From contig CAZEIH010000001.1 in NCBI GenBank assembly GCA_964512095.1, positions 126,091-190,090 on the forward strand: a stretch of DNA of 64,000 nucleotides, given 5' to 3'. Positions 10,780 to 40,482 of this stretch are shown here, one piece after another. The notes under the pieces were generated by a model. The model was given only the letters and a program-made list of their open reading frames with translations. It ran no database searches and was not told the origin of the DNA. This DNA comes from an uncultured Oscillospiraceae bacterium (GTDB lineage: Bacteria > Bacillota > Clostridia > Acetivibrionales > DTU013). The number at the start of each line of letters is the position of its first letter. Within the stretch, counting starts at the first letter, position 1. A program made the position numbers and the translations under genes.

Positions 10780-10781
10780 GA

Positions 10782-15886: not shown

Positions 15887-17489
15887 GGTTGTCAGTATCG
15901 GCGACGCTATTTTCAACAGGCGACATGAGGAATGTTCCCGACAAAAGAATAGGGAAGTTAAGGCCTTCCACGTCCTCGCTGATGTTGAAATAAACGTAGA
16001 TCTCATCCACAGACACAATTTTAATCTCTTTGATTATTTTCTTTAAGTCAGCATTCTCAATGCTTTCAGTAAAACTAAATTTATCAAAAATCTCAATAAA
16101 CTGCTTTAGACTCTCCCTGATCTGACGATTCAGTTCTCTGGTCTTGTCGGTGCTATCCAGCTTGAATGATAACCTTTCAATTTCGGCATTGATGGGAACC
16201 ATATCCTGCTTCGCTTCATCCATGGTAATAAGACCATTCACAGCCAATTCCTTTAGCCTGTCACGTTTGCTATGCAACTCACTTAGGTCTGCTTTCGCCT
16301 CATCAAGATCAATGCCATTGTTATCCCTGATATACTCCCTGATTAAACTATTGCACTTGCGCTCAACCTCATCAAAGAAAGATACTTTTCCCTCTACCAG
16401 ATAACTAAAAAGACTGTCCAATCCTTCTTTAAGCCAATCTTCATTTATTCTGGTGTATTCAGATTCGCAGCGGTTTTTGCCATAGGCACTTCTTTTAGAG
16501 CATGTCCACCAAACATACAACGGGCCATCTTTAGAGTGCCTTCTTTGATAACGCCTGTAAGAAAAACCGCATGAACCGCATTTAATTAAGTTGGAAAATA
16601 AATGCTTATTGCTCCTGCGTGAAAATATGTCTTGATAGAGTTCAGCGTTTTTCTTCGTCTGTTCCAGAGCCTTATAAAATTGCTCATCAGATATGATTCT
16701 AAACTCCGGTCTGTCCACCACATACCACTCTTCTTCCGGGTTTTCCTTGCGCTTGTTGGTAAATATATCTGTACTGCTCTCTTTGCCATTGATGACTTGG
16801 CCAATATATATTTCATTTCTCAAAATATTACCCACCGTGTTTTGCGACCAATTATAGTTGGGCTGTCCGTCTTTCAGTTTTTTGGTCTGCACTCGGTTCT
16901 CAAATAAATAGGAAGCGATTCTTGCCATGCCCCATTCTTCTTCCGTATATAAGTCGAAAATTTTCTTGACCCATTCGCTTTCTTCAGGGTTAGGCTCTAA
17001 ATTATATGCATCTATCCTATCATAGCCAAAGACGAAATTAGGCACACGGCCTTTTTCTTTGCCGAATTGCTTTCCAAACTTCACTTTTTCTGAGATGCGC
17101 TGGGATTCACTTTCAGCCAGCATAGCCATAAGATTTAAAGTGAAACCATCAATATCCTTGCCTTCGCCCATATTGACAAGATGCAGATTCACTCCATACA
17201 AGCTCAATTCTCTAGTAACGGTGATAAAATCAAGTGTGTTTCTAAAAAGCCTGCTGATATCTTTAACATAGAGCTTTTCAAATTCTCCACGCTTGGCGGC
17301 TTTTCTCAATCGCTGCAAATCTTTTCTGTTTTGCATCTTTGTAGCAGACTTGCCCTTATCACAATAAATCGCTACTAGTTCATCTCCCCTTTTGGGAATA
17401 TAGCTTTCAAAAAACTCACGCTGATTTTCCAGCGAGCTTTGTTGTTCTTCTTTATCTGTACTAACCCTAATATAAGCGACAGCCTTCAT
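15843..17489 (-). CDS. Large serine recombinase (rec1)
   Basis: 548 aa. N-terminal resolvase catalytic motif AVAYIRVSTDKEEQ, a recombinase domain, and a Cys-rich zinc-ribbon (CGSCGFSYRR...WWTCSKR...C). RBS GAGAGGTG. The ORF reads across attL into host DNA. Confidence 0.9.
   Translation of the reverse strand: MKAVAYIRVSTDKEEQQSSLENQREFFESYIPKRGDELVAIYCDKGKSATKMQNRKDLQRLRKAAKRGEFEKLYVKDISRLFRNTLDFITVTRELSLYGVNLHLVNMGEGKDIDGFTLNLMAMLAESESQRISEKVKFGKQFGKEKGRVPNFVFGYDRIDAYNLEPNPEESEWVKKIFDLYTEEEWGMARIASYLFENRVQTKKLKDGQPNYNWSQNTVGNILRNEIYIGQVINGKESSTDIFTNKRKENPEEEWYVVDRPEFRIISDEQFYKALEQTKKNAELYQDIFSRRSNKHLFSNLIKCGSCGFSYRRYQRRHSKDGPLYVWWTCSKRSAYGKNRCESEYTRINEDWLKEGLDSLFSYLVEGKVSFFDEVERKCNSLIREYIRDNNGIDLDEAKADLSELHSKRDRLKELAVNGLITMDEAKQDMVPINAEIERLSFKLDSTDKTRELNRQIRESLKQFIEIFDKFSFTESIENADLKKIIKEIKIVSVDEIYVYFNISEDVEGLNFPILLSGTFLMSPVENSVADTDNRAQGCNGTIAKGEP
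15880..15886. other. attL core: left copy of the 7-bp direct repeat TGTGCAC
   Basis: Identical heptamer at 38024-38030. It lies exactly at the point where SpoIIID-like coding breaks off. Confidence 0.75.
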
Positions 17490-17534
17490 ACGGATTCACC
17501 TCTCTGTCATATCTCCTATATATTTAATGGTTCT

Positions 17535-17563
17535 ATTATAACGAAATGAATTTTTTTGGTCAA
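17535..17563 (-). promoter_or_regulatory. Near-consensus sigma-A-type promoter for rec1: TTGACC, 17-nt spacer, TATAAT
   Basis: Minus-strand TTGACC at 17563-17558 and TATAAT at 17540-17535, with a 17-nt spacer. About 45 nt upstream of the rec1 ATG. Confidence 0.55.
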
Positions 17564-17564
17564 G

Positions 17565-17599
17565 AAATGAAAACAGGGCAGCTTATGCGCTGTCCTGTT
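17565..17599 (-). terminator. Hairpin plus T-rich tract between the small ORFs and the rec1 promoter
   Basis: Stem AACAGGACAGC / GCTGCCCTGTT (17572-17599), followed on the minus strand by TTTCATTTC. Confidence 0.5.
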
Positions 17600-17750
17600 C
17601 TGTGTATGTACTATCGGTTGAGTTAATGGATTTTATCGCCGCCGCTACGATGCTTTTGGCAACCCCTTGAGACAGTGCATCTAAAATATAACTTAGGATA
17701 GCGGGATCCAGGTTGCTTATTTCACTTTTTTTCTCTAACACCCCTTGCAC
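17583..17750 (-). CDS. Small ORF (55 aa, GTG start), candidate accessory or directionality factor
   Basis: VQGVLEKKSEISNLDPAILSYILDALSQGVAKSIVAAAIKSINSTDSTYTEQDSA. RBS GGGGGTGAG. A similar small ORF lies upstream of rec2. Below the ORF-track size cutoff. Confidence 0.4.
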   Translation of the reverse strand: MQGVLEKKSEISNLDPAILSYILDALSQGVAKSIVAAAIKSINSTDSTYTEQDSA

Positions 17751-17860
17751 TATCTCACCCCCTTTGACCCTGTCCTCTTGCTAATGTATATTGCGGCTTG
17801 GGTGGTTTTATTCCCCTTATTTGGGCGAGCTGTATCTTTGTAAATAAATGGATTTTCCAT
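17750..17860 (-). CDS. Small basic ORF (36 aa)
   Basis: MENPFIYKDTARPNKGNKTTQAAIYISKRTGSKGVR. Strong RBS GGGAGGAAAACT before the ATG. Its stop overlaps the next GTG start (TAGTG). Confidence 0.35.
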   Translation of the reverse strand: MENPFIYKDTARPNKGNKTTQAAIYISKRTGSKGVR

Positions 17861-18015: not shown

Positions 18016-18394
18016 TTATCCCCCGGCACAACACTTCACAGATAGCAGTTTCCCATTGGCCATCATAAACACTTCAGGATATTTGAACATTTCCAGATAC
18101 TTGCTGGCCAACTCATCTGTAAGACCTTTAAAAATTTTCGCTATCTGGCCTTGCCAAGCAGATAAAGAACGTGCCTGCTATGATTTCATATAAATCGCCC
18201 TTGTCATCGGCAAGTCTCCTGTTTAAGTCCAGCCCATTTATTTTTCCTTCCTCGTTACACACAATTGCTACATGGTCAGCAAAAGGATAGATCGCCTCAA
18301 TATAGCCACCTACAACCTTTTGCATGGCCTTAAGCCCCGAATCTATCTGCCTAATCTCTGCCACCTTGTTTGGCTCTACATAAACCACTTTCAC
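18016..18394 (-). pseudogene. DUF3846-like gene, frameshifted
   Basis: GTG start at 18394 with RBS AGGAGGGG. VKVVYVEPNKVAEIRQIDSGL...AGTFFICLARPDSENF stops at 18128. The expected C-terminus KGLTDELASKYLEMFKYPEVF... continues in the +1 frame to 18016. The shift lies in an A/T homopolymer run. Confidence 0.55.
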
Positions 18395-18618
18395 ATAACC
18401 CCTCCTATACCGACAGCTTACATATTTATCCACCAACTTTAGAACCCCTTGGGTCACTTTGGGTCAACATTGGCACCAAATCCATACCTAATCCTTAGAA
18501 CCACCCTAAACCCCTTTTAAAACCCCTTGGGTCAACCCTGGACACTACTCAAACCATACTTGCGACAACCGACAACCTCCATATTCGCAAAATACATTTT
18601 CCTCGGTTGCGATATGTA

Positions 18619-19194
18619 TCACATCTGATTTTTAAGAATCTCCAAGCAAAGCGGGTCTATGTCGCTTTCTTGGATTCTAGTAACTTTGAGCACCATCCGA
18701 TCAATCCCAGAATCAACAATGGAATAATAACTGCCGTTAAAACAGTACCCGGTGCCGTCAAAAATAATATGGGGGATATCCATACAGCTCAAAACCTCGG
18801 ATAAACTGTCACAATTATCCGTGATGGGGAAGAAGTCTCCAATGTCGTCAAATTCAAATTCCGGCTCTTTTTCCTTTGCTGGCTGATCGGAATCATCGTC
18901 ACCGCAGTATAATTCACCAATATGCTCGTCTGCATAGAGTTGATTATTCCGCTCACTTTTGATGAAACGGTTTACCATCTCTTCCATCTGGGATATTTGA
19001 TATGCTATATCGCTGGCCAGCTTTTGATCATCCAAGCTAAACCTTGTATAGTCAAACACATATCCTTTTCCTGTAATCTGATTTAATATTTTCGCACATA
19101 GAATTAAATCTCTGTTATAGTTCTTCATATGGCTATTAACCATATTTTTGATTGCTACTTCAATTGTTTTCTGCTTCTCGATCATGCAGCACAC
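18619..19194 (-). CDS. Hypothetical protein (acidic middle region)
   Basis: 191-aa ORF with no recognisable domain. Its start may be the internal MIEKQK. Confidence 0.45.
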   Translation of the reverse strand: MCCMIEKQKTIEVAIKNMVNSHMKNYNRDLILCAKILNQITGKGYVFDYTRFSLDDQKLASDIAYQISQMEEMVNRFIKSERNNQLYADEHIGELYCGDDDSDQPAKEKEPEFEFDDIGDFFPITDNCDSLSEVLSCMDIPHIIFDGTGYCFNGSYYSIVDSGIDRMVLKVTRIQESDIDPLCLEILKNQM

Positions 19195-19381
19195 CCGCCT
19201 CTCTTAATTCTTTAAGTTTTCTGCCCATGGCACATTGACTGAATCCCTGCATTCTGGCTAAATCCTTGACCTTGACTCCCTCGTTGCGAAGTTTAACCAG
19301 CTCATGATTAGTCAGTTTCTTCCTGCCTGGGTCTACACCGCCAACCAATTCAATTAGGATCCTGCAAATATGATTGGTCAT
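19160..19381 (-). CDS. Small helix-turn-helix protein (sigma-70 region-4-like)
   Basis: 73 aa. LTNHELVKLRNEGVKVKDLARMQGFSQCAMGRKLKEL resembles an HTH. Confidence 0.45.
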   Translation of the reverse strand: MTNHICRILIELVGGVDPGRKKLTNHELVKLRNEGVKVKDLARMQGFSQCAMGRKLKELREAGVLHDREAENN

Positions 19382-19497
19382 TTTTCACCGTTGATTTGAT
19401 GTCAGCGATGGGGAGTTTCTATTTTTGTTTCATGTACCAGAATTTCTGTACCTTCCTTCCTCGTTCTTGAAGTAAATTGAATTTTCCATGAACTGTA

Positions 19498-19526
19498 TTG
19501 ACATTTTTACTCTAACCAGTTAGACT
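19498..19526 (+). promoter_or_regulatory. Sigma-A-type promoter for the blaI/blaR1-like operon: TTGACA, 17-nt spacer, TAGACT
   Basis: TTGACA at 19498-19503 and TAGACT at 19521-19526. Directly followed by the repeated ACTCTAT half-sites, a possible operator. Confidence 0.45.
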
Positions 19527-19566
19527 CTATGTGTACTCTATTGCATTAGAGAAAGGAGCGGTTAAT

Positions 19567-19941
19567 ATGGAAACACCTAAAGTATTTGAGAGCGAATATC
19601 GCTTTTGTCTTATTCTGTGGGAGCACGAGCCTATTGGAAGCGGCGAGCTTGTAAAGCTGTGTAAAAAGCAGCTTGACTGGAAGCCAACCACCACATATAC
19701 GGTCATCAAACGCCTTTCCGAACGTGGTATTCTGAAAAACGAAAACTCAATCGTATCTTCGTTAATTTCAAAGGATGAAGTGCAGGCTGCCGAGATCGAT
19801 GAGCTTGTGGAAAAGAAATTTGAGGGTTCTCTACCGGCTTTTATCACTGCATTTACAAAGCACCAGCAAATTTCAGATAAGGAGATCGATGAAGTACAGA
19901 AAATGATTGACCGATATAGGAAGGGGAATCGCAATGGCTGA
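19567..19941 (+). CDS. BlaI/MecI/CopY-family transcriptional repressor
   Basis: Winged-helix N-terminus (LILWEHEPIGSGELVKL...TTTYTVIKRLSERGIL) and a C-terminal dimerisation helix. RBS AAAGGAG before the ATG at 19567. Its stop overlaps the next gene start (ATGGCTGA). Confidence 0.8.
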   Translation: METPKVFESEYRFCLILWEHEPIGSGELVKLCKKQLDWKPTTTYTVIKRLSERGILKNENSIVSSLISKDEVQAAEIDELVEKKFEGSLPAFITAFTKHQQISDKEIDEVQKMIDRYRKGNRNG

Positions 19942-21796
19942 TATATTCTTGAAATTTATCAACATGAGCATATCCGCAAGCTGGCTTGTGCTTGTTGTTG
20001 TCATTCTAAGATTATTACTAAAAAAGGCACCAAAATGGCTGAACCCTGTGCTATGGGGAATCGTCGGTCTCCGGCTCATTTTGCCCTTTTCCATTGAAAG
20101 CATCCTGAGCCTGATCCCCAGTGCTGAAACAATCAGCCCGGAAATTATTTACTCTCAGGAGCCAGCAATCCATAGTGGTATTCAGGCATTAAACAGCGTG
20201 GTCAATCCCATCATTATGGAATCTTTTACCTCTAATCCTACGGCCAGTATAGATCCATTGCAAATATGGATTCCAATAGCTGCTATTGTTTGGACTGTTG
20301 GTATCGCCGCCATACTTATCTACACGATTATCAGTTATCTGCATCTGAGCAGGCTGGTAAAGACTGCTGTGTTGCTCCGGGATAATATTTATCAGAGTGA
20401 AAATGTTGTATCACCCTTTGTACTCGGCATACTGCGCCCCCACATCTATCTACCATTTAATATGAACGAGAAAGATATAGCTCATGTGATTGCTCATGAA
20501 CAAACGCACATCAAGCGGCGCGATCACTGGATTAAGCCATTTGGCTTTTTAATGCTTGCTTTGTACTGGTTCAATCCTGTGTTGTGGGTGGCGTACATAC
20601 TTCTCTGTCGGGATATTGAGCTTGCCTGTGATGAGGGAGTGATTAAAGAATTGTGTGCAGATCAGCGAGCGGATTATTCGGATGCTCTACTTTCATGCAG
20701 TGCGCCACGACGTATGATTGATGCATGTCCGCTTGCTTTCGGAGAAATTGGTGTGAAAGAGAGGGTGAAAAACGTGCTGAATTATAAAAAGCCTGCGTTC
20801 TGGCTTATTATCGTTGCTGTTGTCATCTGCATCGTCGTAGCTGTGTGCTTTCTAACAAATCCAAAGAAGGCTCCGATCTCTTTAGGCACTATTCAGATAA
20901 CTTGGGCAAATGCATTGGATATGAGATCCAACGAGCCGACATCGTACAAATTGAATGGCGCAGAGCTTGGTGAACTAAAAGACCGTCTGCGGGATTTGGA
21001 GATTGGCAGAAAAAATAATGATTATGGCGGTTTTACGCCTGTGTATTCGCTGTCAATAAAAGCGCAAGGCATGGAGCAATTCATGATTGCAAGCTACAAC
21101 AGCGACGGCACTCATGTAGGTTTGAGGTATGAGGGTGAATATTACCGCATAGAAGATAACGATTTTTCAAGATACCTCAGCAACATTTGTGCTGGGGGCA
21201 ACAGAGCTGAAGCACTCGGTAATAAAATCAAGTTGTCTCTCGATGATGTAATTATGCTTTCTCAAAAAGGTGAAGATCTTTCGTGGGAAGATTTTGAACA
21301 ATTTTCTTATGTGGAAACCGGCTCTGGCCTCTATATCCATGTTTATGAAATCAATCCTTTGTTATCACTTTGGATAGGTGGAGGCAATCTCGACAATGAG
21401 CCAATGTATATCAGCCTTTGCATCAATACGGAGCCAGAGGATGCCATAGACATTCGAACAGAAGATTTAACCGCTTTTATCAGTAAGCATAGAGATGATC
21501 TACCGGAAGCATTTATCTCCCGTATATACAGATTCAACGATTCAGAGGACTTTATAAAAACCGCTGAGGTTGTTCTTAATAAAGATGAGACTTTTACCTT
21601 TAATTTTTCGCCTATCAGCAGTTATCTCGGACATGGTACTTATAAGATCGATGGTAATAGACTGACTTTGAATACAGATGATGGATATTATACCTATGTA
21701 TTTGACATGGTAGATGATACACTTGTTTTCGATGCCGATGCTTCCTCAGAACAGGTTTGGTTTTCTGGCATAACGGATGGTTCGGTGTTCAAGTAA
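19934..21796 (+). CDS. BlaR1/MecR1-like M56 metallopeptidase signal transducer with an unrecognised C-terminal sensor domain
   Basis: N-terminal TM helices, zinc motif HEQTHIKRRDH, then a further TM and about 300 aa extracellular region with no SxxK penicillin-binding motif seen. Confidence 0.75.
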   Translation: MADIFLKFINMSISASWLVLVVVILRLLLKKAPKWLNPVLWGIVGLRLILPFSIESILSLIPSAETISPEIIYSQEPAIHSGIQALNSVVNPIIMESFTSNPTASIDPLQIWIPIAAIVWTVGIAAILIYTIISYLHLSRLVKTAVLLRDNIYQSENVVSPFVLGILRPHIYLPFNMNEKDIAHVIAHEQTHIKRRDHWIKPFGFLMLALYWFNPVLWVAYILLCRDIELACDEGVIKELCADQRADYSDALLSCSAPRRMIDACPLAFGEIGVKERVKNVLNYKKPAFWLIIVAVVICIVVAVCFLTNPKKAPISLGTIQITWANALDMRSNEPTSYKLNGAELGELKDRLRDLEIGRKNNDYGGFTPVYSLSIKAQGMEQFMIASYNSDGTHVGLRYEGEYYRIEDNDFSRYLSNICAGGNRAEALGNKIKLSLDDVIMLSQKGEDLSWEDFEQFSYVETGSGLYIHVYEINPLLSLWIGGGNLDNEPMYISLCINTEPEDAIDIRTEDLTAFISKHRDDLPEAFISRIYRFNDSEDFIKTAEVVLNKDETFTFNFSPISSYLGHGTYKIDGNRLTLNTDDGYYTYVFDMVDDTLVFDADASSEQVWFSGITDGSVFK

Positions 21797-21825
21797 GATG
21801 TATAAACAAGCAGGTATTGATGAGG

Positions 21826-22160
21826 TTCGAAAAGTCGGAACATACCGGAAGGATCTCATCATACTAGACTTTCAAAGCCTCCATACACCTGTAATGGCTG
21901 TGAGGATAAAAGATCTTGCACGTTGGAAAAGAGGGTCTACTCTGCGGTTCATGCACAAAGAGAATACGAGGCAGTCCGTTCCGAGTCTCGTCAAGGGTTA
22001 CAGCTTACAGAGGAAGAGGCTTTGAGACTAGATTCACTTATTAGCCCTCTGCTAATGAAAGGCCAGTCACTCCACCATATATGTGCAAACCATGTAGATG
22101 AGATTATGCTCAATGAACGCTCTCTTTACAACTACGTGGATGATGGCATTTTTGCAGCAC
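21826..22160 (+). pseudogene. Transposase remnant (IS30-like family, uncertain), truncated at both ends
   Basis: Encodes ...LSKPPYTCNGCEDKRSCTLEKRVYSAVHAQREYEAVRSESRQGLQLTEEEALRLDSLISPLLMKGQSLHHICANHVDEIMLNERSLYNYVDDGIFAARD and then diverges. There is no start, no DDE domain and no terminal repeats. Confidence 0.5.
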
Positions 22161-22282
22161 GAGATACCATCTACAATACGGTTTCCTGTGGAATTTACTT
22201 TTGCAAACTGGAAGTTACCTTTTCAATTGACCCTTGCGCGACAACACTTTTTACAATACCTTATAATTTTGAATACTTTCGC

Positions 22283-23632
22283 CTAATATTTTGACCGTTC
22301 CAACGCCATCCCAATAATCTTATCCGCATGATCCGCCATAAACAACGGAATATTCAGCAGGTCATCATCCATGCGCAGGTTATTCAGTGAAAAGCGAACA
22401 CGCAGCTTTACCTTATCTTCAAATTTTTCCTTGTACTTTTTAAGGCTCCGGCTTTCCACATTGCTCTCGGATTTAACCTCTACCGGCAAAATGTCATTTT
22501 CTCTTTGGATAAGAAAATCAACCTCATACCTTGGGTTATCCATTGTCCAATAACGTGGCATAGCTTCAAACTGGTTTTGTAACGCTTGCAGGACATAATT
22601 CTCACTTAAAGCCCCTTTAAACTCTACAAACAGCCTATTACCTTCACCAAATGCCGAGGGAGCTAATAGAGATAATCTACGCAATAATCCTACATCGACC
22701 ATATATAGTTTAAATGCAGACAAATCGTCATAGGCGGAAATAGGCAGCCCCGGTGCGGTGCTGCGGTATATCTTATAAGTCAAGTTGGCATCACAAAGCC
22801 ATTGCAGAGCATCTTCGTATTCCCTCGCTCTGGCTCCTTCCTTGACAACCTTATAAATAAACTTTTTATTTTCCCTTGCCAGTTGTGAAGGGATTGATTT
22901 CCATATCATTGAGATTTTCGGAAAATCCTTAGGATCAGGGTGCTTGGCAAAATCTCTTTCGTATGCGCCTAAAATATTGGATAGCACCTGCTGCATCAGC
23001 TCCACATCTCGGTCTTGCACCCAAGAGCGAACAGACTCCGGCATACCGCCTGTTACAAAATACATTTTAAGCTTTTCGTATAATGGATTGAAAAACGCCT
23101 CGGGAATCGGCTCAATCCTGTCCACGCTTTTCATATAATCAGCAAAGTTACCGTCGCCATTGGCCATTAAAAACTCCGTAAATGTCATTGGCATAATTTC
23201 TAAAAAATCCACCTTGCCAACTGGAAAAGATGCTGGCTTAGACAATGCAATGCCCAAAAGTGATCCTGCGCAGGCTACATGGTAGTGAGGCGTGTTCTCG
23301 CAGAAATACTTCAGTGTGTTCAGTGCGTTAGGGCATTCCTGTATCTCATCAAAAACAATGAGCGTGTCCTCCGGATTGTCTTGTTTGATGACTTCTCCGC
23401 TGGCCATCATCAGATTTTGCAGAATACGCTCCACATCCTTGGTGCTTTCAAAAAACTGTTTATATTCTGGATGCTCGTCAAAGTTGAAATAGGCCATATT
23501 TTCATAATGGCGTTTTGCAAATTCCTTGAGTAGCCAAGTCTTGCCCACCTGACGCACCCCTTTTAAAATAAGGGGTTTTCTATATTTGGAGTTTTTCCAG
23601 TCCAGCAGTTTTTGCATAGCCAGTCTTTCCAT
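22283..23632 (-). CDS. AAA ATPase with DUF4143-type C-terminal domain (copy 1)
   Basis: Walker A GVRQVGKT and Walker B LIVFDEIQ. The likely start is MERLAMQK (23632) after RBS GGAGGTGG. About 25 substitutions versus copy 2, by eye. Confidence 0.8.
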   Translation of the reverse strand: MERLAMQKLLDWKNSKYRKPLILKGVRQVGKTWLLKEFAKRHYENMAYFNFDEHPEYKQFFESTKDVERILQNLMMASGEVIKQDNPEDTLIVFDEIQECPNALNTLKYFCENTPHYHVACAGSLLGIALSKPASFPVGKVDFLEIMPMTFTEFLMANGDGNFADYMKSVDRIEPIPEAFFNPLYEKLKMYFVTGGMPESVRSWVQDRDVELMQQVLSNILGAYERDFAKHPDPKDFPKISMIWKSIPSQLARENKKFIYKVVKEGARAREYEDALQWLCDANLTYKIYRSTAPGLPISAYDDLSAFKLYMVDVGLLRRLSLLAPSAFGEGNRLFVEFKGALSENYVLQALQNQFEAMPRYWTMDNPRYEVDFLIQRENDILPVEVKSESNVESRSLKKYKEKFEDKVKLRVRFSLNNLRMDDDLLNIPLFMADHADKIIGMALERSKY

Positions 23633-23929
23633 ACCGCCACCTCCAAGATAACACATTATTATACAACTTTTGCGTATGATAATCACATTTATATTGATAA
23701 GTATAGCTGAAATTCAAATTCTAGTCAAGAGTAATCACACTATTATATGAAATAGATAGATAAAAATCACATAATCGTGTAATTTTACTCTATAGTCTTT
23801 AACATAACAAAACCTGCCCCGATAAACAAGGCAGGTTTTGCTTACTTTCATGTATTCTTAATTTCAGCTTTTAAGCCGCATATTCAAACACCCAATGCAA
23901 CCGACACTGACTGTTACTACTGTTTGTAC
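22295..23929. repeat. Direct repeat copy 1 (right-end module of unit 1: ATPase gene, upstream region, hairpin, att arm)
   Basis: Collinear with 36353-38030. High nucleotide identity through the ATPase gene and lower identity in the upstream region. Similarity starts at CCG(T/C)TCCA...GCCATCCCAATAATC. Confidence 0.8.
23809..23839. terminator. Symmetric hairpin AAAACCTGCC-N11-GGCAGGTTTT (bidirectional terminator-like), copy 1
   Basis: Perfect 10-bp stem flanked by an A-run and a T-run. Lies 25 nt downstream of the rec2 stop. An identical hairpin is at 37900-37930. Confidence 0.6.
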
Positions 23930-25687: not shown

Positions 25688-25807
25688 TCACGCTGTTTCT
25701 GAGATTTGTATTGCTTCGGCCGACTCAGCCACTATCTTTCGAGCGATATTTAGTGCAAGAGTCTCTGCTATCTTTTGTAGGATGTCATCGGGTAGTTTGA
25801 CCTCCAT
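25688..25807 (-). CDS. Small ORF (39 aa from the ATG), homologous to the small ORF upstream of rec1
   Basis: MEVKLPDDILQKIAETLALNIARKIVAESAEAIQISETA. The same frame stays open upstream (…KRISIRYNANGQGVKG) with no canonical start, and that stretch resembles the 36-aa ORF of unit 1. Confidence 0.35.
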   Translation of the reverse strand: MEVKLPDDILQKIAETLALNIARKIVAESAEAIQISETA

Positions 25808-26032
25808 ACCTTTGACTCCTTGTCCATTTGCGTTATACCTTATGCTTATTCTCTTTTTAGCTTGTTTATGTTTGTTAAATTGCTTTATAGTAACCGCAGT
25901 CCTTCTTGTCTTAATGACCTGTTTGTCATTGTGCCTAACCGGCTCTAAGCTCTTTATTTATGCATAAAAATGTTGGAGAGCTAAAATTTATCTCTTTAGC
26001 CACCCCAACATTAATTATAGAACCAATATATA

Positions 26033-27397: not shown

Positions 27398-27617
27398 ACT
27401 TTATCTCCTGTGATTAGGATTGCAAATACAAATATTAGTCCACATATATTGACATAATTATAGCATACGCCAGCAGTAAGTATAAAGAAAAAAGTCAAAA
27501 AAGAGAGAATAAAGTCCACCTATACTAAAACTATACCGCTCTTTTAGCCCGTCTGTACCCTATCTGGACTGTCCATGCAGAAAATTGACGTTTATGCTGA
27601 TATTGGAGGTGATCGAC

Positions 27618-27944
27618 ATGACATCACTGAGACGATGTTTTGCCTATGAGAAGAACATCGTTATAAATGCCCTGTACGATACCATCGAGGCATTGGGGCT
27701 ATCTCTTGACAGCTCAAACAGCATGCGTGGCACGTTGATAGTTTCCGACACGAACCATACCGGTAAAATGCGTATCGCACTCAGCTTTGACGCAGTTAGG
27801 AAGCAAACTCAGGTAGAGATCTATCCTGTGGACTCCGGAATAAACATTACTGAAGACTGGAGTACTGTTATTTTGGATGAACTCTCGGGAAGAATGGAGT
27901 ATTTGCACCAATTCGTTCGTGAAAGCAGCAACGGGTTATATTGA
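27618..27944 (+). CDS. Hypothetical small protein
   Basis: RBS GGAGGTG before the ATG at 27618. First gene of a co-oriented cluster divergent from the LuxR gene. Confidence 0.5.
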   Translation: MTSLRRCFAYEKNIVINALYDTIEALGLSLDSSNSMRGTLIVSDTNHTGKMRIALSFDAVRKQTQVEIYPVDSGINITEDWSTVILDELSGRMEYLHQFVRESSNGLY

Positions 27945-27977
27945 ACGAAGCACTAAGATATGAGAGGTGGAGTTTAA

Positions 27978-29474: not shown

Positions 29475-29594
29475 TGCGAGATATCCGGCGCCCAAACGAT
29501 GGTGACCGAAGAATTGAATGGTGTGATAGATAAAGCTGTCACTCAGATTCCATTGATAGTGTTGTCAAGATATTGAAAGGGGTGGATGTAATAA

Positions 29595-31244: not shown

Positions 31245-31286
31245 ATAATAGTAGTGTCAATATATTGAAAGAGGAGTGAAGTTGAA

Positions 31287-34200
31287 ATGAAAAAAATGAA
31301 ATTGTTTGCATTTGTTATGTGCGTCGCGATGCTTGTGACGCTGATACCCACGGTAGCCTTGGCAGCAGATCCTCAAATAGTAGGGTATATCGATCACGAT
31401 ATTACGGTAGATACGACATGGCCTGTCGGAGAATACTATATCTGCAGGACAGAAGACAACAACGAACCAATAGTGGCAAGCGGTGTTACGTTGACAATCG
31501 AGAGCGGTTCAAAAGTATATTTTGGTTATCGCACTAATGTGCCAATACCAAGTACTGAAACGATTCCCTATTCATGTCTGACAGTAAACGGTACCCTGAA
31601 TGCAACCGGTGTAACATTTACTACCATTCCCGACGTCGGAGATCAGACCGATTGGCGGGATGCCGGATGGATGGGCATAGAGGCCAGGTCTGAAGACTCG
31701 TCAAATGCAGCAAGCCTTTCGTTTACCAATTGCATATTTGAATACTGCTGCGGCTCAGGAACTCTGTGCGGAGCAGATTCCAACGACGGTGGAGATAATC
31801 AAAGGGTTGATATAACTGTGTCGGGCTGTACGTTCGAAAACCCGATAAAAGAGGTAACAGATGGACTCTATGCGGCCATCCGTTATAACAACGGGTATCA
31901 TCTGGCCGGAACAGGAACACTTTCCGTCTCTGGCTCTAACTTTACAGACTATAGTCACGGTGTTCTGGTAGAGGGAAACTCCCGGGACGATATCGATGTA
32001 TCCGTCAACGGCTGCACGTTTACCGATATAGGCATAATGCCGGTGACAATTCACAGTGGTCGGTCAGCAAGCGTGACAAACTGCACATTCAACAATATAG
32101 AAAGTATACGGGACGGTGCAGCTCATATATTTACCGACTATGAAGCAAGTAATAAGGTTCAAACGGTTACGCTGACGGGCAATATCTTCAACGGGGCTCC
32201 CACAACGACCAAATACCCGGTCGTAGTTGGAGCCAATGTAAAAATTAACGAAAATGTAACTAGCGATACCAGCACATTCAGTGCAGATTATCCTGCGGTA
32301 TACCGGTATATAAGATTTTCAGGCGGTATCGGCAGCACCAGTACAACCAACCCCTCTGTTGAGCATGCGGTTTGGGGCTTTACGGGCATTCCGTACCTGA
32401 TGACTAACGGTGTGAAGGTCTCAGGAAATGGAACTAAAGACGATGGCATCCACAGCTCTCTTGAAATAAAACCCGGCGTTACTGTTAACTTTGCTGCAGG
32501 AGTAGGACTTACAATAGACGGAGCATTAACAGCTGAAGGTGAAAACGGTAACCCCATCACTTTCCAAAAACAACAAGGCGCGGATTGGTGCTTTGGACTT
32601 GAAGCCGACGGTGCTCTTGAGGGTCCTATCAGCTTAAAATACTGTAACGTTAATGACTTAAACAGCGGCATTAACGTTAAGGCACCAAGTACAGCTACGA
32701 CGCCTCCCACCATTGCGATTGAAAACTGTACAATTCAAAGCGTGAACCACCAAACTGCTTTAAAAGGCAAAAACATAACGGTCACAGACTCCGGCTTCAC
32801 AGGTCTTGGCGTTGATTTGGCCAACAGCCGTAATGTGACGATAACAGATTGTACAATCACCATGAACGCAGGAAGCTGGACCGAAAACGGCGTAAAAATA
32901 GAAAACTGTGATAACATTACGCTGCAGGGCTGCGATATTACATCAAATGGGGTACTGGGCGGAAATGGTGTTGACATTTACAATTCAAAATCTGTTTTAC
33001 TAAAAAACTGCCTCGTTACAGAGTTCCCCGAATATGGGGTCAGCCTTAATCGAAATCCTTATGAGACTATAGAAGAGGGTGCACCACTTATTGAGAACTG
33101 TACCGTAGTCTCTAACGGATACGCCGGTGCTATTTTCAGGTATTCCGGCAATGTCAATAATCCAGTTGAATACAGTTCTTTTATCAAGAATAGTATCATC
33201 ACTAATAACGGGGTCGCCTTACCAGAAGATGATCCAAAGCTGGATATAATCCGTTTAGCTGGCTATGCAGTTGCCATCCCTGAGGGTAGTATCTTGTATT
33301 CACTTATAGGTAACGATGACGCACCATTTGGCGTCTATTATTATTCTCACCCCTCATTATTGAATGCTGGATATCCAATGAGTATTTATCCGATCCCAAC
33401 GACTGCCTACTCAAACCGTGTTAGCGGTCCTGCAAACTTTACCGATGCAGAAAATAATGATTACCATTTAAAATCTGCAGAGGGCAGATGGGACGGAAAC
33501 GGGTGGGTCAATGACGACGTTACGAGCAATTGCATCAATGCAGGCGATCCGAACTCCTCATTTGCTAACGAGCCGGCTGACAACGGGGACCGAATCAATA
33601 TAGGCCGTTACGGCAACACGGCAGAAGCCTCAAAACTAGCCACCACCAATCCGTCCTATTTGCAGTACATTAATCTACCTGACGGAAAGGTTGGCCAATA
33701 TGATGCTTATACAATTACGCCGGAGAGTAGCTCCGTTTCACCTGTGGTTTCTGGCGAAAGCTACAGCTTTACCGTTACAGTAAACAGTTATCATTATAAG
33801 ACCGGTGGCTTTGCGGTTAAGGTCGATGGCGTAGAGCTGAGTTCGGTGGATAATATTTACACCATCGAGAATATCACAGAAGACAAAACAATAACCGTGG
33901 AGGGCATTGCGCTGATACAAGGTCCAACATTCCTCGCTCAGCCTCAAGACTTAACTGTTGCTCCGGGAGCACCGGCGTCCTTTAGTGTCGAAGTAGAAAC
34001 GGAGGGCTATGAGCCTACATATAAATGGAGAGTGAGCGAAGACGGCGGAGAAAACTGGGTGGACGCAGGAGATACTGACGCACAGCTTAATATTGCATCA
34101 ACCACTATCACGCAAAGCGGTTGGAAATACATCTGCTTTGTATACTATCCGTACGGGGGCAATTCTTATTCCGTTGCAAGCGAAGTGGCAACGCTTACAG

Positions 34201-35516
34201 TTGTAGATGATGAGACCCAGTACAGTATCGCTGTCAGCGTAAGCCCCGCAGCGGGCGGTGCGGTAAGCGGCGGAGGCAGCGTCAATGCGGGTGCATCCGT
34301 CACTGTTACAGCCACACCTAACGCAAGCTACAACTTTGTCAAATGGACGGAGAGCGGAGCGCAGGTCAGTACCAGTGCGAGCTATACATTCAATGTTACT
34401 GGGAACCGTACACTTGTCGCCGTTTTTGAGAGCGCAACACCACCACCGCCGCCGCCACCACCACCGCCATCCGATCCGCCTGTCACTAATCAACCAGTCA
34501 TTACTCCTCCAGTCAACGAGATTGGCAACGGCGAAAGCATCACAGCCTCAAACCTCGCGAGTCTTATCTCGGAAGGCAAGGATCTTATCGTGGAGGATGA
34601 TGATGGTGCAAAGCTGGTATTTAATGCTGAAGCCCTCAAAGGCATCAGCAGTCAGGCAATCGGTAGTGTCAAGGCTGAAATTTCAGACGTGTCGGATGAA
34701 TATCAGGAAACTTATCCCGACAAGCTGGTGTTCTCATTGACAGTAACTTCCGGTGACAAGGTCATCACCAATTTCGACGGTTCTGTCACAGTATCTCTGC
34801 CCTATGAGCTGAAAGAAGGCGAAGACCCTAAGAATGTCAAGGTCTGGCATCTCGCAGCGGACGGCTCTATGACAGAAATTCCCTGTACCTATAATCCCTC
34901 GACTAAAAAGGTAAGCTTTGTTGTCAGCCACTTCTCCTTGTATATGGTAGGTGTCGCTTCTACACATGTCAATCCTTTTACCGATGTGAATGAGAAGGAT
35001 TGGTTCTATAACGCGGTTAGTTTCGCCTACAAAAACGGTTTAATGACCGGCACAGGCGATACGACCTTCAGCCCGCAGGCCAACACCTCCCGGGGCATGA
35101 TAGTCACCATCCTCTGGCGGTTGGAAGGCGAACCGGATACGGCAAATCCCATTGCCTTCACAGACGTTGATGAGGGTAAATGGTATCACGATGCCGTGGC
35201 ATGGGCTTCGGAAAAAGGCATTGTTGACGGTTACTCTAAAGATAAATTCGGGCCAGAAGACAACACTACCCGTGAGCAGATGGCCAAGATACTTTGCTCA
35301 TATGCGGCTTACAAGAGCTACGATGTAAGCGCCCGCGGCGATCTATCAGTATTCACCGACAGTCCATCGAACTGGGCGTTGGAGTATATGCAGTGGGCAG
35401 TTGCCGAGGGTCTGTTTCAAGGCAAGGGCAATGCTATCCTTGACCCGCTGGGCAATACCAAACGCAGTGAGTGCGCAGCCATTTTACAGAGATTTATAGA
35501 AAAGTATAACCCATAA
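31287..35516 (+). CDS. Giant surface protein: parallel beta-helix repeats, Ig-like and Listeria-Bacteroides-type repeat, poly-Pro linker, three C-terminal SLH domains
   Basis: 1409 aa with a signal peptide. Repeated NCT/GC..T.NG right-handed beta-helix-like motifs. SVSPAAGGAVSGGGSVNAGASVTVTATPNASYNFVKWT repeat. A PPPPPPPPPSDPP linker. SLH motifs FTDVNEKDWFYNAV, FTDVDEGKWYHDAV, FTDSPSNWALEYM. Confidence 0.8.
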   Translation: MKKMKLFAFVMCVAMLVTLIPTVALAADPQIVGYIDHDITVDTTWPVGEYYICRTEDNNEPIVASGVTLTIESGSKVYFGYRTNVPIPSTETIPYSCLTVNGTLNATGVTFTTIPDVGDQTDWRDAGWMGIEARSEDSSNAASLSFTNCIFEYCCGSGTLCGADSNDGGDNQRVDITVSGCTFENPIKEVTDGLYAAIRYNNGYHLAGTGTLSVSGSNFTDYSHGVLVEGNSRDDIDVSVNGCTFTDIGIMPVTIHSGRSASVTNCTFNNIESIRDGAAHIFTDYEASNKVQTVTLTGNIFNGAPTTTKYPVVVGANVKINENVTSDTSTFSADYPAVYRYIRFSGGIGSTSTTNPSVEHAVWGFTGIPYLMTNGVKVSGNGTKDDGIHSSLEIKPGVTVNFAAGVGLTIDGALTAEGENGNPITFQKQQGADWCFGLEADGALEGPISLKYCNVNDLNSGINVKAPSTATTPPTIAIENCTIQSVNHQTALKGKNITVTDSGFTGLGVDLANSRNVTITDCTITMNAGSWTENGVKIENCDNITLQGCDITSNGVLGGNGVDIYNSKSVLLKNCLVTEFPEYGVSLNRNPYETIEEGAPLIENCTVVSNGYAGAIFRYSGNVNNPVEYSSFIKNSIITNNGVALPEDDPKLDIIRLAGYAVAIPEGSILYSLIGNDDAPFGVYYYSHPSLLNAGYPMSIYPIPTTAYSNRVSGPANFTDAENNDYHLKSAEGRWDGNGWVNDDVTSNCINAGDPNSSFANEPADNGDRINIGRYGNTAEASKLATTNPSYLQYINLPDGKVGQYDAYTITPESSSVSPVVSGESYSFTVTVNSYHYKTGGFAVKVDGVELSSVDNIYTIENITEDKTITVEGIALIQGPTFLAQPQDLTVAPGAPASFSVEVETEGYEPTYKWRVSEDGGENWVDAGDTDAQLNIASTTITQSGWKYICFVYYPYGGNSYSVASEVATLTVVDDETQYSIAVSVSPAAGGAVSGGGSVNAGASVTVTATPNASYNFVKWTESGAQVSTSASYTFNVTGNRTLVAVFESATPPPPPPPPPPSDPPVTNQPVITPPVNEIGNGESITASNLASLISEGKDLIVEDDDGAKLVFNAEALKGISSQAIGSVKAEISDVSDEYQETYPDKLVFSLTVTSGDKVITNFDGSVTVSLPYELKEGEDPKNVKVWHLAADGSMTEIPCTYNPSTKKVSFVVSHFSLYMVGVASTHVNPFTDVNEKDWFYNAVSFAYKNGLMTGTGDTTFSPQANTSRGMIVTILWRLEGEPDTANPIAFTDVDEGKWYHDAVAWASEKGIVDGYSKDKFGPEDNTTREQMAKILCSYAAYKSYDVSARGDLSVFTDSPSNWALEYMQWAVAEGLFQGKGNAILDPLGNTKRSECAAILQRFIEKYNP

Positions 35517-35589
35517 TACAACAAGGTTACATAATGTCACCGGACTTACAGGTGTCTGGTTTACTCTGAACACATATGATAACAAAAAA

Positions 35590-35628
35590 CAGCCCAAAAT
35601 CCATTACACTTGGATTTTAGGCTGTTTT
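35590..35628 (+). terminator. Rho-independent terminator after the surface-protein operon
   Basis: Stem CAGCCCAAAATCCA / TGGATTTTAGGCTG (one mismatch), followed by TTTT. Confidence 0.65.
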
Positions 35629-35688
35629 GAATTGTTTTGATAATAAACCATGGTATCAATTACTTTGTTCACTCTTTGATGTGATATA

Positions 35689-36116
35689 TTAAAACAGTGA
35701 TATTTGAGTTAGTTTAATGCTTTTTATTTTTCGGTCTGTTATCTTATCTGATGGTTCAATACCGTATTCGTCTAGGTCAACTTCTTCGGCACATGTTTTT
35801 AAAGTAATGGCATTGGCATGGGCAATTCCAGAAAATTCTCGTGCAATAATATTAATTTCATTTTGAGTATGCTGAACTACATTTTCAGCCTTCAGATTAT
35901 TTTTCACTTTATCATAAATGTCAACAAAGCTAAAAACACAGCTGCTCGTAAATCATTTGTAATTAGCTTTGCTCCAAGTGATTTAAACATTTCTGCCACA
36001 ACAACTGAACCTGAAAATAAATCAGCTACAGTAGATCCAGAAATATCCCCATATGTTTTACTAACTATATCTTTGATGAATTCAAGTGCTTTAACTTTAG
36101 AACCCAGATATCGCAT
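35689..36116 (-). pseudogene. DNA adenine methyltransferase remnant (N-terminal motif only, frame-disrupted)
   Basis: MRYLGSKVKALEFI...VADLFSGSVVVAEMFKSLGAKLITND matches the N-terminus and AdoMet motif of D12-class methylases. The frame then breaks at 35904-35907, and no DPPY-type motif was found. Confidence 0.5.
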
Positions 36117-36343
36117 TTATATGTTCCTTTATTCTTTACATTATTTTCAGTGACTTAGAGATACTATTTGGTTTGCAACAACTTCAGATTGCCCTGTTTA
36201 GAATCTCTATTCTCATTTCTTTCAGGTATCTTTTCCATGATGTCACCAAATTGTATCATAAATTATGGTGATATTGTTTGTTCTTTGCTTAGTTAAAAGA
36301 AGTCTGATAAGCAACAAAAGCTACCACCGCTAAGAAAAAACCG

Positions 36344-37690
36344 TCAACCCATCCGCTCCAGTGCCATCCCAATAATCTTATCAGCATAATCCGCCATAAA
36401 CATCGGAATATTCAGCAGGTCATCATCAAGGCGCAGGTTATTCAATGAAAACCTAACACGCAGCTTTACCTTGTCTTCATATTTCTCCTTGTACTTTTTA
36501 AGGCTACGGCTTTCCACATTGCTCTCGGATTTTACTTCCACTGGCAAAATATCGTTTTCTCGTTGAATCAGAAAGTCCACTTCATATCTTGGGTTTTCAA
36601 CAGTCCAATAGCGTGGCATGGCTTCAAACTGGTTTTGTAGTGCCTGCAGGACATAATTCTCACTTAACGCGCCTTTAAACTCCACAAACAGTCTGTTTCC
36701 CTCGCCAAAAGCCGAAGGAGCCAAGAGAGATAGTCGGCGCAACAATCCTACATCTGCCATATACAACTTGAATGCAGACAAATCATCGTATGCTGAAATA
36801 GGCAACCCCGGTGCGGTACTGCGGTATATCTTATAAGTCAAATTGGCATCGCACAGCCATTGCAGGGCATCTTCATATTCCCTTGCTCTGGCACCGTCTT
36901 TAACAACCTTATAGATAAATTTTTTATTTTCTCTTGCAAGCTGCGAAGGGATTGACTTCCAGATCATAGATATCTTTGGAAAGTCTTTAGGTTCAAGGTG
37001 TTTTGCAAAATCTTTTTCATATGCCCCTAGAATGTTGGACAGCACTTGTTGCATCAGCGCCACATCCCGGTCTTGCGCCCAGGAGCGAACAGACTCAGGC
37101 ATACCGCCTGTTACAAAATACATTTTTAGTTTTTCATAAAGGGGATTGAAAAAGGCCTCTGGGATAGGCTCAATACTATCCACGCTTTTCATATAATCAG
37201 CTAAGTTACCGTCACCATTAGCCATTAAAAATTCAGTAAAGGTCATTGGCATAATTTCTAAAAAATCTACTTTTCCAACTGGGAAGGACGCTGGCTTAGA
37301 CAATGTTATCCCCAATAACGATCCTGCACAGGCCACATGATAAATGGGCGTGTTCTCACAGAAATATTTCAATGTGTTCAATGCATTAGGGCATTCCTGT
37401 ATCTCGTCAAAAACAATGAGCGTTTTCTCTGGTCTGTCTCGTTTAATGATTTCACCACTGGCCATCATCAGATTTTGCAAAATGCGATTGACATCTTTGG
37501 TACTTTCAAAAAACTGCTTGTATTCAGGGTGCTCATCAAAGTTAAAATAAGCCATGTTTCCATAGTGGCGTTTTGCGAATTCCTTGAGAAGCCAAGTCTT
37601 GCCGACTTGACGTACCCCTTTTAAAATAAGGGGTTTTCTATATTTGGAGTTTTTCCAGTCCAGCAGTTTTTGCATAATCAGTCTTTCCAC
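36344..37690 (-). CDS. AAA ATPase with DUF4143-type C-terminal domain (copy 2)
   Basis: Near-identical paralog of 22283-23632. Likely GVG start VERLIMQK at 37690 after GGTGGTGG. Confidence 0.8.
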   Translation of the reverse strand: MERLIMQKLLDWKNSKYRKPLILKGVRQVGKTWLLKEFAKRHYGNMAYFNFDEHPEYKQFFESTKDVNRILQNLMMASGEIIKRDRPEKTLIVFDEIQECPNALNTLKYFCENTPIYHVACAGSLLGITLSKPASFPVGKVDFLEIMPMTFTEFLMANGDGNLADYMKSVDSIEPIPEAFFNPLYEKLKMYFVTGGMPESVRSWAQDRDVALMQQVLSNILGAYEKDFAKHLEPKDFPKISMIWKSIPSQLARENKKFIYKVVKDGARAREYEDALQWLCDANLTYKIYRSTAPGLPISAYDDLSAFKLYMADVGLLRRLSLLAPSAFGEGNRLFVEFKGALSENYVLQALQNQFEAMPRYWTVENPRYEVDFLIQRENDILPVEVKSESNVESRSLKKYKEKYEDKVKLRVRFSLNNLRLDDDLLNIPMFMADYADKIIGMALERMG

Positions 37691-37899
37691 ACTACCACCA
37701 CCAAAATAACACATTATTATACAAGTTTTGCGTATGATAATCACACTATATTGATATAGCATAGTCCAATTTCCAATATAAGTCAAGTCTAATCACGTTA
37801 TTATAAATAAATTGCTGCAAAAAATCACATTCTTATGTACTTCCTTGTCGATAGCCTACTCTGCATTATCGTATTTTAATCTACATCCTGCTGCAAAAC

Positions 37900-37930
37900 A
37901 AAACCTGCCCCGATAAACAAGGCAGGTTTT
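37900..37930. terminator. Symmetric hairpin AAAACCTGCC-N11-GGCAGGTTTT, copy 2
   Basis: Identical to 23809-23839. On the minus strand it lies about 60 nt downstream of the stop of the truncated spoIIID 5' fusion ORF. Confidence 0.6.
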
Positions 37931-38023
37931 CTTCGCTTTATGTTTCACTATTTTCCTTATGGTTTCAGCCCTTAAGCCACATATTCTATTATCCATTTAA
38001 ACCGACACCGATTGTGATAACTG

Positions 38024-38030
38024 TGTGCAC
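38024..38030. other. attR core: right copy of the 7-bp direct repeat TGTGCAC
   Basis: Identical to 15880-15886. It is the point where SpoIIID-like coding switches to the unrelated tail TVITIGVGLNG*. Confidence 0.75.
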
Positions 38031-40431: not shown

Positions 40432-40482
40432 CAGGACCCCCCCTATAGCCATAAACTGCTGTTTTGATAATATATATTCGCA

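Follow-up and report, generated by a model that had tools for sequence, protein, structure and literature searches.

A stretch of 64,000 nucleotides from an uncultured Oscillospiraceae bacterium (GenBank assembly GCA_964512095.1, contig CAZEIH010000001.1, positions 126,091 to 190,090; hereafter the window, which always means the whole stretch) carries a 22,144-bp insert that separates the two halves of the sporulation gene spoIIID. This insert probably consists of two distinct spoIIID-targeting elements of the skin/gin kind, each with its own large serine recombinase (LSR) and neither of them a phage, which stand in direct tandem in one chromosomal attachment site (attB) with a hybrid attP between them. 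Unit 1 (8,043 bp) and unit 2 (14,101 bp) are both complete, have the same orientation and are laid out alike, with a recombinase gene at the left end and a module of ATPase gene, hairpin and attachment arm at the right end. A first-pass annotation, made from the letters of the window, had proposed such a head-to-tail pair of related recombinase units, and all of its features were found where it had placed them or within a few bases. The main features of the insert are the following:

15731..15883, minus strand: spoIIID 3' fragment (KDVTERLL... to stop; start 15880), on the B' side of attL, from the translation
15843..17489, minus strand: rec1, large serine recombinase of 548 aa (Pfam Resolvase, Recombinase and Zn_ribbon)
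15856..15909: attL (B'-P'1), inside the 3' end of rec1, central TG at 15882-15883
17583..17750, minus strand: small open reading frame (ORF) 1, 55 aa, candidate recombination directionality factor; kept upstream of the recombinase in relatives of both types
22283..23686, minus strand: ATPase 1 (AAA_14 and DUF4143, PDC-S01), probable start 23632
23809..23839, minus strand: hairpin 1, terminator-like, downstream of rec2, identical to hairpin 2
23864..25585, minus strand: rec2, large serine recombinase of 573 aa (Pfam Resolvase, Recombinase and Zn_ribbon)
23899..23952: internal hybrid attP-like site (P1-TG-P'2), inside the 3' end of rec2, centre at 23925-23926
25688..25807, minus strand: small ORF 2, 39 aa, homologous to small ORF 1 and the corresponding candidate directionality factor in unit 2
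36344..37786, minus strand: ATPase 2 (AAA_14 and DUF4143, PDC-S01), 94% identical in amino acids to ATPase 1
37900..37930, minus strand: hairpin 2, terminator-like, downstream of the spoIIID 5' fragment
38000..38053: attR (P2-B), central TG at 38026-38027
38025..38138, minus strand: spoIIID 5' fragment, aa 1-38, ...KSTVH, from the translation, tblastn and profile models

The interrupted gene and the attachment sites

The translation of spoIIID, a minus-strand gene, breaks after codon 38 at STVH|KD (…KSTVH | KDVTERL…). Fused in silico, the two halves give a protein of 87 aa that passes the TIGR02844 SpoIIID equivalog model from end to end with 129 bits (cutoff 111.5) and matches PF12116 (E 2.5e-40); in tblastn the reconstituted SpoIIID finds its aa 35-87 at 15892-15734. 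As in skin- and gin-like elements, the ORF of a mother-cell sporulation gene is interrupted and is restored by precise rejoining, and the recombinase stands at the edge of the insert: rec1 abuts and overlaps the spoIIID 3' fragment, and its final ~12 codons come from spoIIID DNA. The gene lies downstream of a spoIIQ-like M23 gene (38506-39345) and spoIID (39421-40452) in a minus-strand cluster, both neighbours being intact, and tblastn detected no second copy of spoIIID within the 64-kb window. In the mother cell, the regulator SpoIIID acts after sigma-E and before sigma-K; an element inside its gene therefore needs to be removed early and precisely for sporulation.

The attachment sites were registered on the TG at the dyad centre of the internal site and of the reconstructed outer attP, which lies within a 7-nt identity of attL and attR. 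Aligned without gaps, the internal site agrees with the outer attP at 39 of 54 positions (38 of 53 in the hand count of the first-pass annotation). No other of the 127,894 54-mers that the two strands of the window contain scores as high (mean 13.4, sd 3.2). The resemblance is real and far beyond chance, and the annotation's own reservation, that a proper alignment might find no significant similarity here, is answered by this result. Self-complementarity amounts to 36/54 in the outer attP and 34/54 in the internal site and to 12/54 in attB; all three sites have the same TG centre, and this combination of a dyad-symmetric attP with an asymmetric attB is that of large serine integrases. The four P-type half-sites agree among themselves at 14-20 of 26 positions and with the B-type half-sites at 8-10; P'1 diverges most. 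Homology between the two right ends stops exactly at …CACCG, which is the spoIIID junction (attR) in unit 2 and the dyad centre of the internal site in unit 1. The internal site thus joins the right arm of one unit to the left arm of the other around a common crossover dinucleotide, and the order attL with its P'1 arm, unit 1, P1-P'2, unit 2, attR with its P2 arm, as given in the annotation, is supported by the arm matches and by solo relatives.

An uninterrupted site of this kind was found in three contigs from IMG/VR (L092-L094), whose recombinase is 36% identical to rec1: within the last recombinase codons they have a 52-bp ACCGTTCC-N17-CA-N17-GGAACGGT. In the sense of spoIIID the internal site reads ACCGACAC-N17-CA-N17-GTGTCGGT, it lies within the last codons of rec2, whose tail crosses it into the right end of unit 1, and its layout is the same as that of the attP of L092-L094. 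Because geometry and placement match, 'intact attP-like' is a fair label for it. The three contigs are classed as viral and carry a distant family member with an intact attP (L092 4558-4609; also L093 and L094), and some members of this recombinase family may be phage-borne.

spoIIID as a shared target of solo elements

A scan of one genome per species gave 272 recombinase relatives, of which the best 80 were taken as loci L001-L080. The spoIIID 3' fragment stands at or near the recombinase stop in about 28 of these 80 loci, and the loci with insertions in spoIIID span Acetivibrionales, Carboxydocellales, Peptococcaceae, Oscillospiraceae, Lachnospiraceae and others. Every junction that we inspected, in about 25 relatives, falls at one position, …GT(A/G)CA(T/C)|AA(A/G)GA…, with a conserved CA centre. 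Among the hosts with a split spoIIID are Zhenhengia yiwuensis (L011), Acetanaerobacterium elongatum (L012) and Anaerocolumna aminovalerica (L029). All relatives with both junctions inside the locus are single elements with one recombinase, ranging from 3.0 kb (L003), 3.2 kb (L005), 3.5 kb (L028 and L031/L034), 4.8 kb (L039) and 5.5 kb (L007) to 6.2 kb (L004), 6.7 kb (L010), 7.7 kb (L032) and 10.6 kb (L011). The minimal ones, of 3.0-3.5 kb, consist of recombinase and small ORF (L003 8581-11609, L005 8421-11614, L028 149-3602, L031 8060-11533).

Each type of unit is found alone at the same attB elsewhere. Solo elements with a rec1-type recombinase occupy spoIIID in L003, L004, L005 and L010, and two of them, L004 and L010, are laid out like unit 1, with the recombinase (78-83% identical) on the left and the ATPase on the right. 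Recombinases of the rec2 type occur in L008 (81%), L088 (76%), L089 (69%) and L090 (89%); since all four abut the spoIIID 3' fragment directly, rec2 is an ordinary spoIIID integrase, and L089 is a complete rec2-type solo element of 8.8 kb with both junctions. Only in this window does rec2 face the right arm of another element rather than spoIIID. A further locus, L091, comes from a near-identical host, with one mismatch in 139 nt of spoIIID flank compared to the window. Its element has orf191 (90%), the ATPase (87%), an identical hairpin and a P1-type flank, and the spoIIID 5' fragment follows its right end with nothing in between; in this very close host, unit 2 is thus absent from that end of a unit-1-like element. 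The first-pass annotation had called for a comparative search for relatives with one unit; these rec1-type solos, L089 and L091 are such relatives, and they speak against a nested insertion of rec2 and its flank, the alternative that it had named. Between orf191 and the ATPase L091 has about 11 kb of different cargo (573-11765), and cargo turnover within the species appears to be fast.

The arms of the internal site can be assigned by comparison with these relatives. Its P'2 half, ACCGACACCGATAGGAACAACGGTA, resembles the attL arms of the rec2-type L008 and L090. Over 70 nt, P1 with its flank is 80% identical to L091, 73% to L004, 69% to L003 and 64% to the rec2-type L089, and P2 is 73% identical to L089 and 60-61% to L003 and L004. 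These percentages are modest, and the signature strings agree with them, GGTTGCATTGGGTGTTTGA being present in P1, L091, L003 and L004, and GGTTTAAATGGATAAT or GGTTAAATTTGATAAT in P2 and L089; both lines of evidence point the same way, to P1 as a rec1-type and P2 as a rec2-type arm.

Several loci that might have been taken for further tandems gave no evidence of one. In L002 (rec1 91%, ATPase 94%), which has no spoIIID 5' fragment to the left of the ATPase, the region in question codes for a reverse transcriptase of the group II intron type, beyond which the locus does not extend. The 2-kb gap between the recombinase and the 3' part of spoIIID in L020, L025 and L036, considered as a second unit or internal attachment site, is accounted for by an extra gene of about 440 aa (L020 11470-13477, L025 11473-13427, L036 4292-6399), which occurs in these loci of the Lachnospiraceae type; the recombinase is therefore not always the terminal gene. 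Matches of a CCGACAC...GTGTCGG dyad pattern in L007, L017, L032, L033 and L089 are regarded as due to chance, with mismatches and a missing core, and the reading of other rec2 homologues through a P arm was a false positive, their tails ending after the P' arm.

A model of excision

The region between rec1 and its small partner gene bears on how excision might be controlled:

17535..17563, minus strand: sigma-A-like promoter TTGACC-17-TATAAT, directly upstream of rec1, the best promoter match of the region (11/12)
17565-17598: hairpin preceding the rec1 promoter
17781..17813, minus strand: GAATAAA-N16-TATACATTA block upstream of small ORF 1, invariant in 8 rec1-type sequences

The order in unit 1 is small ORF 1, hairpin, sigma-A-like promoter, rec1. 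The rec1 promoter is kept in L001 and L002 and partly in L003 and L006. The TATACATTA half of the invariant block presumably resembles the -10 elements of mother-cell sigma factors of B. subtilis, and the block is a possible promoter of the mother-cell type. A small ORF adjoins every recombinase in both clades and in remoter relatives, including the 3-kb minimal elements, L001-L010 and L088-L090. It has a core of 39-60 aa with the common motif L(D/P)xxIL..I...LA..IA+.IV..A, and differences between close relatives are mostly synonymous; no match to it was obtained in Pfam or PHROG. As the sole gene besides the recombinase that these elements always have in common, it is the obvious candidate for the directionality factor.

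With integrases of the phiC31, Bxb1 and SPbeta type, the only reactions known to be productive are attP x attB (without a factor) and attL x attR (with a factor). Under these rules the internal site is classed as attP; it would therefore be inert towards attL and attR, and the composite would be one excision unit. In the sporulating mother cell, recombinase and small partner would recombine attL with attR, release the whole 22.1-kb composite and rebuild spoIIID, the recombinase being made constitutively and the small partner in the mother cell, a scheme that fits the promoter layout of unit 1 and the logic of SPbeta and skin. Either recombinase may catalyse this step, because both clades use the same attB and the four P-type half-sites have a common pattern. 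Partial excisions (of the attL x attP or attP x attR type) would be expected only if these enzymes matched the Ccr recombinases in permissiveness. The three excision products foreseen in the first-pass annotation are thus of unequal standing: the circle of the whole element is the one expected by the canonical rules, and the unit-1 and unit-2 circles are possible products that these rules do not lead one to expect. The predicted junctions, all on the plus strand, are:

Restored attB: CGTTACATCCTTG-TG-CACCGTACTTTTAC
Circle of the whole element: GTGATAACTGTG-TG-CACGGTTGTCAGTA
Circle of unit 1: TTACTACTGTT-TG-CACGGTTGTCAGTA
Circle of unit 2: GTGATAACTGTG-TG-TACCGTTGTTCCTA
Chromosome that has lost unit 1: CGTTACATCCTTG-TG-TACCGTTGTTCCTA
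Chromosome that has lost unit 2: TTACTACTGTT-TG-CACCGTACTTTTAC

Origin of the array and alternative explanations

That rec1 and rec2 each have closer relatives in other genomes than each other supports the view that two lineages met at one attB, and we infer that the array arose by site-specific recombination and not by duplication. The second element might have entered attL or attR of the resident one, a cointegrate circle might have integrated, or attR of one element might have recombined with attL of the other on sister chromosomes, a canonical reaction that would also leave an empty attB. The first-pass annotation had left the choice between tandem accretion and a heterodimeric circle. Its premise of two separate elements is favoured here, and the two routes, sequential accretion and integration of a cointegrate circle, both fit and are indistinguishable. 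The right-end modules (22295-23932 and 36353-38033; 22295-23929 and 36353-38030 in the annotation, whose repeat was confirmed by pairwise alignment) are 82.8% identical over 1685 columns in a blastn self-comparison, and the divergences given below show for ATPase, hairpin and P arm a history in part separate from that of the recombinase end; an exchange at the centre of the att site would yield such a pattern.

Units that are laid out alike, with right ends (83% in DNA) far more similar than the recombinases, are also what one would see if a single ancestral element had been duplicated in situ and had then diverged and replaced its cargo. However, the ATPase pair has a synonymous divergence (dS) of 0.95 and a nonsynonymous divergence (dN) of 0.038, and the recombinases, 52% identical, have a dN of 0.41 with saturated synonymous sites; they belong to separate clades, with solo members elsewhere that are nearer (76-91%) than rec1 is to rec2. 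Recent duplication is excluded on these grounds, and we regard duplication followed by divergence as highly improbable. Equally improbable is a single bipartite element with an obligate recombinase pair like CcrA/CcrB, in which the internal site would be an accessory and not a junction. There are indeed two LSR genes within one insert, and CcrA, CcrB and CcrC are among the weak matches in NCBIfam, far short of the cut-offs, but the two genes are 6.4 kb apart, unlike a CcrAB-type pair, and each has its own small ORF and attachment arm; moreover, every relative whose two junctions can be seen has a single recombinase, the geometry of the internal site is fully that of an attP, and right-end homology breaks exactly at its centre. 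An assembly artefact, also very unlikely though less so, would require one integrated element (rec1, cargo 1, ATPase and P2) and one circle (rec2, cargo 2, ATPase and a P1/P'2 attP) to have been threaded together via the ATPase module. The source looks like an anaerobic-digester metagenome-assembled genome (MAG), and a path switch at a 63-nt identical run would make an element and a circle look like a tandem. Short-read contigs do break at the repeat: the Logan contig L081 (an independent assembly of SRR8925752), which has rec2, the internal site and 90 nt of the unit 1 right end at 100% identity, ends at the hairpin. Six metagenome contigs from several digesters, which have rec1 next to spoIIID at 99.7-100% identity, all end inside unit 1. 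No independent contig was found that spans from cargo 1 through ATPase 1 to rec2, and exact-protein look-ups for contigs bridging the repeat or showing other arrangements (ATPase 1 with two starts, the SLH-transglutaminase and the LuxR-type regulator) gave no match. Apart from the identical runs, however, the modules differ about every 6 nt, so that reads of 100-150 nt phase them, and the artefact needs a swapped pairing of ends, the assembled pairing of rec1 with a P1-type and rec2 with a P2-type arm being that of the solo relatives and of L091.

A genuine tandem might also be a fossil, in a host that does not sporulate or has another spoIIID, with no excision and the internal site a relic. 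We consider this unlikely, if less so than a mis-assembly. No excision junctions were found and only 64 kb of the genome are visible, and in L039 an intact spoIIID paralogue stands beside the split one; but both recombinases, the small ORFs and the ATPases are intact, strong purifying selection acts on the ATPases, the two parts of spoIIID show no damage and give a full-length protein when joined, and the window, with spoIID and spoIIQ intact, has no second spoIIID. In L039, an Anaerocolumna MAG, the seemingly intact spoIIID-like gene (3485-3721) is located immediately upstream of the split spoIIID (3878-3991, 8838-8960), and excision may be dispensable in that host. It is somewhat less doubtful, yet still speculative, that the hybrid internal attP is more than a scar and that the composite serves as a hub for the exchange of modules. 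A 22-kb circle with two attP sites could then re-integrate in either register and swap the order of the units, and recombination of the internal attP with an empty attB on a sister chromosome, or of attR with attL between sisters, would build and dissolve tandems by canonical reactions; if true, this would explain why the PDC-S01 right-end module is common to otherwise unrelated spoIIID elements. In a bolder version, the two pairs of recombinase and partner would excise the units in sequence, and production of SpoIIID would be gated by two events.

Several points weigh against the interpretation that we prefer, a functional tandem of two independent elements. If the array was built through a reaction of attP with attL or attR, that reaction was a non-canonical one for an LSR, and whole excision must pair the non-cognate arms P'1 and P2, P'1 being the most divergent. 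Among the 91 loci a two-armed dyad was present only in the window and in L081, which has the same sequence, so that such tandems are rare and perhaps a dead end; only one of 120 rec2 homologues, the window's own, reads across both arms. Neither an excised circle nor an empty site or sub-unit junction was found in the assembled loci and metagenome contigs searched, and sporulation-specific expression is suggested by a motif resemblance. Finally, identical runs of 63 and 34 nt are common to both right ends, and in a MAG-like source a mis-join is conceivable.

Comparison with known elements

Intervening elements with serine recombinases are known from sporulation genes, namely skin, SPbeta and gin (PMC6957869, PMC4191935, PMC5595907, PMC5025042). 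The tandem resembles skin (in sigK, with the recombinase SpoIVCA and the directionality factors Skr in B. subtilis and CD1234 in C. difficile) in the precise rejoining of an ORF and in a variable cargo that is unrelated between hosts; it differs in its target, spoIIID instead of sigK, in the lack of phage genes and in comprising two complete tandem units with two recombinases. In B. subtilis the expression of spoIVCA depends on SpoIIID (PMC6957869), an arrangement that cannot apply to elements in spoIIID: their excision cannot depend on SpoIIID, the target being spoIIID itself. With gin, in gerE of Bacillus cereus (GirC and GirX; PMC5595907), the units have in common that they are not prophages and combine an LSR with a small partner gene, and the minimal design of gin is matched by the 3-kb elements L003, L005, L028 and L031, whereas target gene and recombinase clade are different here, each unit has 4-10 kb of cargo, and the whole is doubled. 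A skin-like element in spoIIID of Ruminiclostridium cellulolyticum was noted in one sentence by Galperin et al. (bioRxiv 10.1101/2022.02.25.481979). By that description it has the same target and is the same kind of element; the report concerns one genome and gives no attachment sites, family survey or tandem. In SPbeta (spsM; SprA and SprB), the LSR is reportedly constitutive, and a directionality factor under sporulation or stress control is said to set excision. This division of labour resembles the promoter layout proposed for unit 1, but SPbeta is an active prophage and there is no phage here.

Composite staphylococcal cassette chromosomes (SCC/SCCmec, with CcrAB or CcrC; PMC11470126) are similar in their LSR-driven head-to-tail accretion at one site, in internal att sites, in defence cargo and in the possibility of whole and partial circles. 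SCC, however, enters rlmH at its 3' end and leaves the gene active, and the Ccr recombinases are known to be permissive in the pairing of sites; the present insert destroys its target gene, which is regained only if the composite leaves as a whole or its units are all excised one after the other. Tandems of integrative and conjugative elements (ICEs) and cis-mobilizable elements (CIMEs) are known to use tyrosine integrases and tRNA or gene-end targets. Such tandems, and those of phages with ICEs (PMC13651849), are comparable in that related elements occupy one attB with a hybrid internal att site and joint mobility, but the spoIIID elements are without conjugation or phage modules.

The open-access literature searched yielded neither an account of a tandem within a sporulation gene nor one of how broad the spoIIID-targeting family is, and the tandem in spoIIID is a rare form that joins two known phenomena, skin-like elements and accretion at one site. 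It raises the question of whether a serine integrase with its partner can recombine attL and attR whose arms come from two elements. The by-products of most value are a set of well-defined att sites, a candidate directionality factor and the recognition of spoIIID as a common target, at one codon across Clostridia, which is mentioned once in the literature searched. The compact sets of recombinase and att sites with a candidate directionality factor may serve as orthogonal integrases, and the candidate defence genes on the elements link the rearrangement of a developmental gene to the spread of defence cargo.

Recombinases, right-end modules and cargo

The catalytic domain PF00239 is present in rec1 and rec2 (E 2.8e-30 and 4.5e-26), both of which have the AYIRVST motif with the nucleophile Ser10 and match PF07508 and PF13408, with the Cys pairs (CxxC...C...C) seen in the translations; these are the catalytic, Recombinase and zinc-ribbon domains of large serine recombinases of the integrase type. 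In the blastn self-comparison the two genes are 64% identical over 839 columns. In P0090 and P0101 (and in P0099 by Pfam annotation) the recombinase ORF continues in frame into the spoIIID 3' fragment, giving a fusion with the C-terminal part of SpoIIID (…TVHKDISERLP…). The reading frame differs in the window and in other relatives, so the recombinase tail varies with the state of integration and is not conserved; for the same reason the GGTTGCATTGGGTGTTTGA flank was rejected as a conserved recombinase tail of the circular form, relatives reading the att region in different frames.

Along the whole profile, both ATPases match PDC-S01, a candidate defence family of PADLOC (E 7e-182 and 6e-179), which makes them candidate phage-defence proteins. 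A DUF4143 ATPase recurs at the right end of several spoIIID elements (L002 787-2223, L004 5689-7086, L010 2617-3840, L091 ~11766-13200), the one in L010 seeming to be disrupted, with split matches. The 31-nt hairpin has two identical copies and none elsewhere in the window (0 expected by chance). Its predicted fold has -24.7 to -25.6 kcal/mol (z about -6), and on the minus strand it has a tail rich in U; it was absent from the 90 loci examined and from IMG/VR, and a metagenome scan gave only L091. The outer copy would stop transcripts entering from the spoIIID promoter, the inner copy those from rec2.

The cargo of the two units was annotated as follows, and no phage structural or conjugation genes were detected in the elements:

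18128..22294: unit 1 cargo, comprising a DUF3846 protein, orf191, a small helix-turn-helix protein, a BlaI-like repressor, a BlaR1/M56 sensor and a transposase fragment (Pfam, PHROGs)
26033..36153: unit 2 cargo, comprising a membrane LuxR-type regulator, an S-layer homology (SLH)-transglutaminase, a 549-aa protein, a 1409-aa SLH/beta-helix surface protein and small ORFs (Pfam)

The GC content of the unit 2 cargo (26000-35500) is 44-52%, against about 36-42% in the flanks, which suggests that this cargo, with its SLH surface proteins of 498 and 1409 aa and its LuxR-type regulator, is foreign. The transposase-like fragment of unit 1 (21923-22294, plus strand; PHROG 4646, E 7e-07) ends exactly where the right-end homology starts (22295). 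Reverse transcriptases of the group II intron type were observed inside or at the edge of two related elements (L002 1-800, L088 4019-5416).

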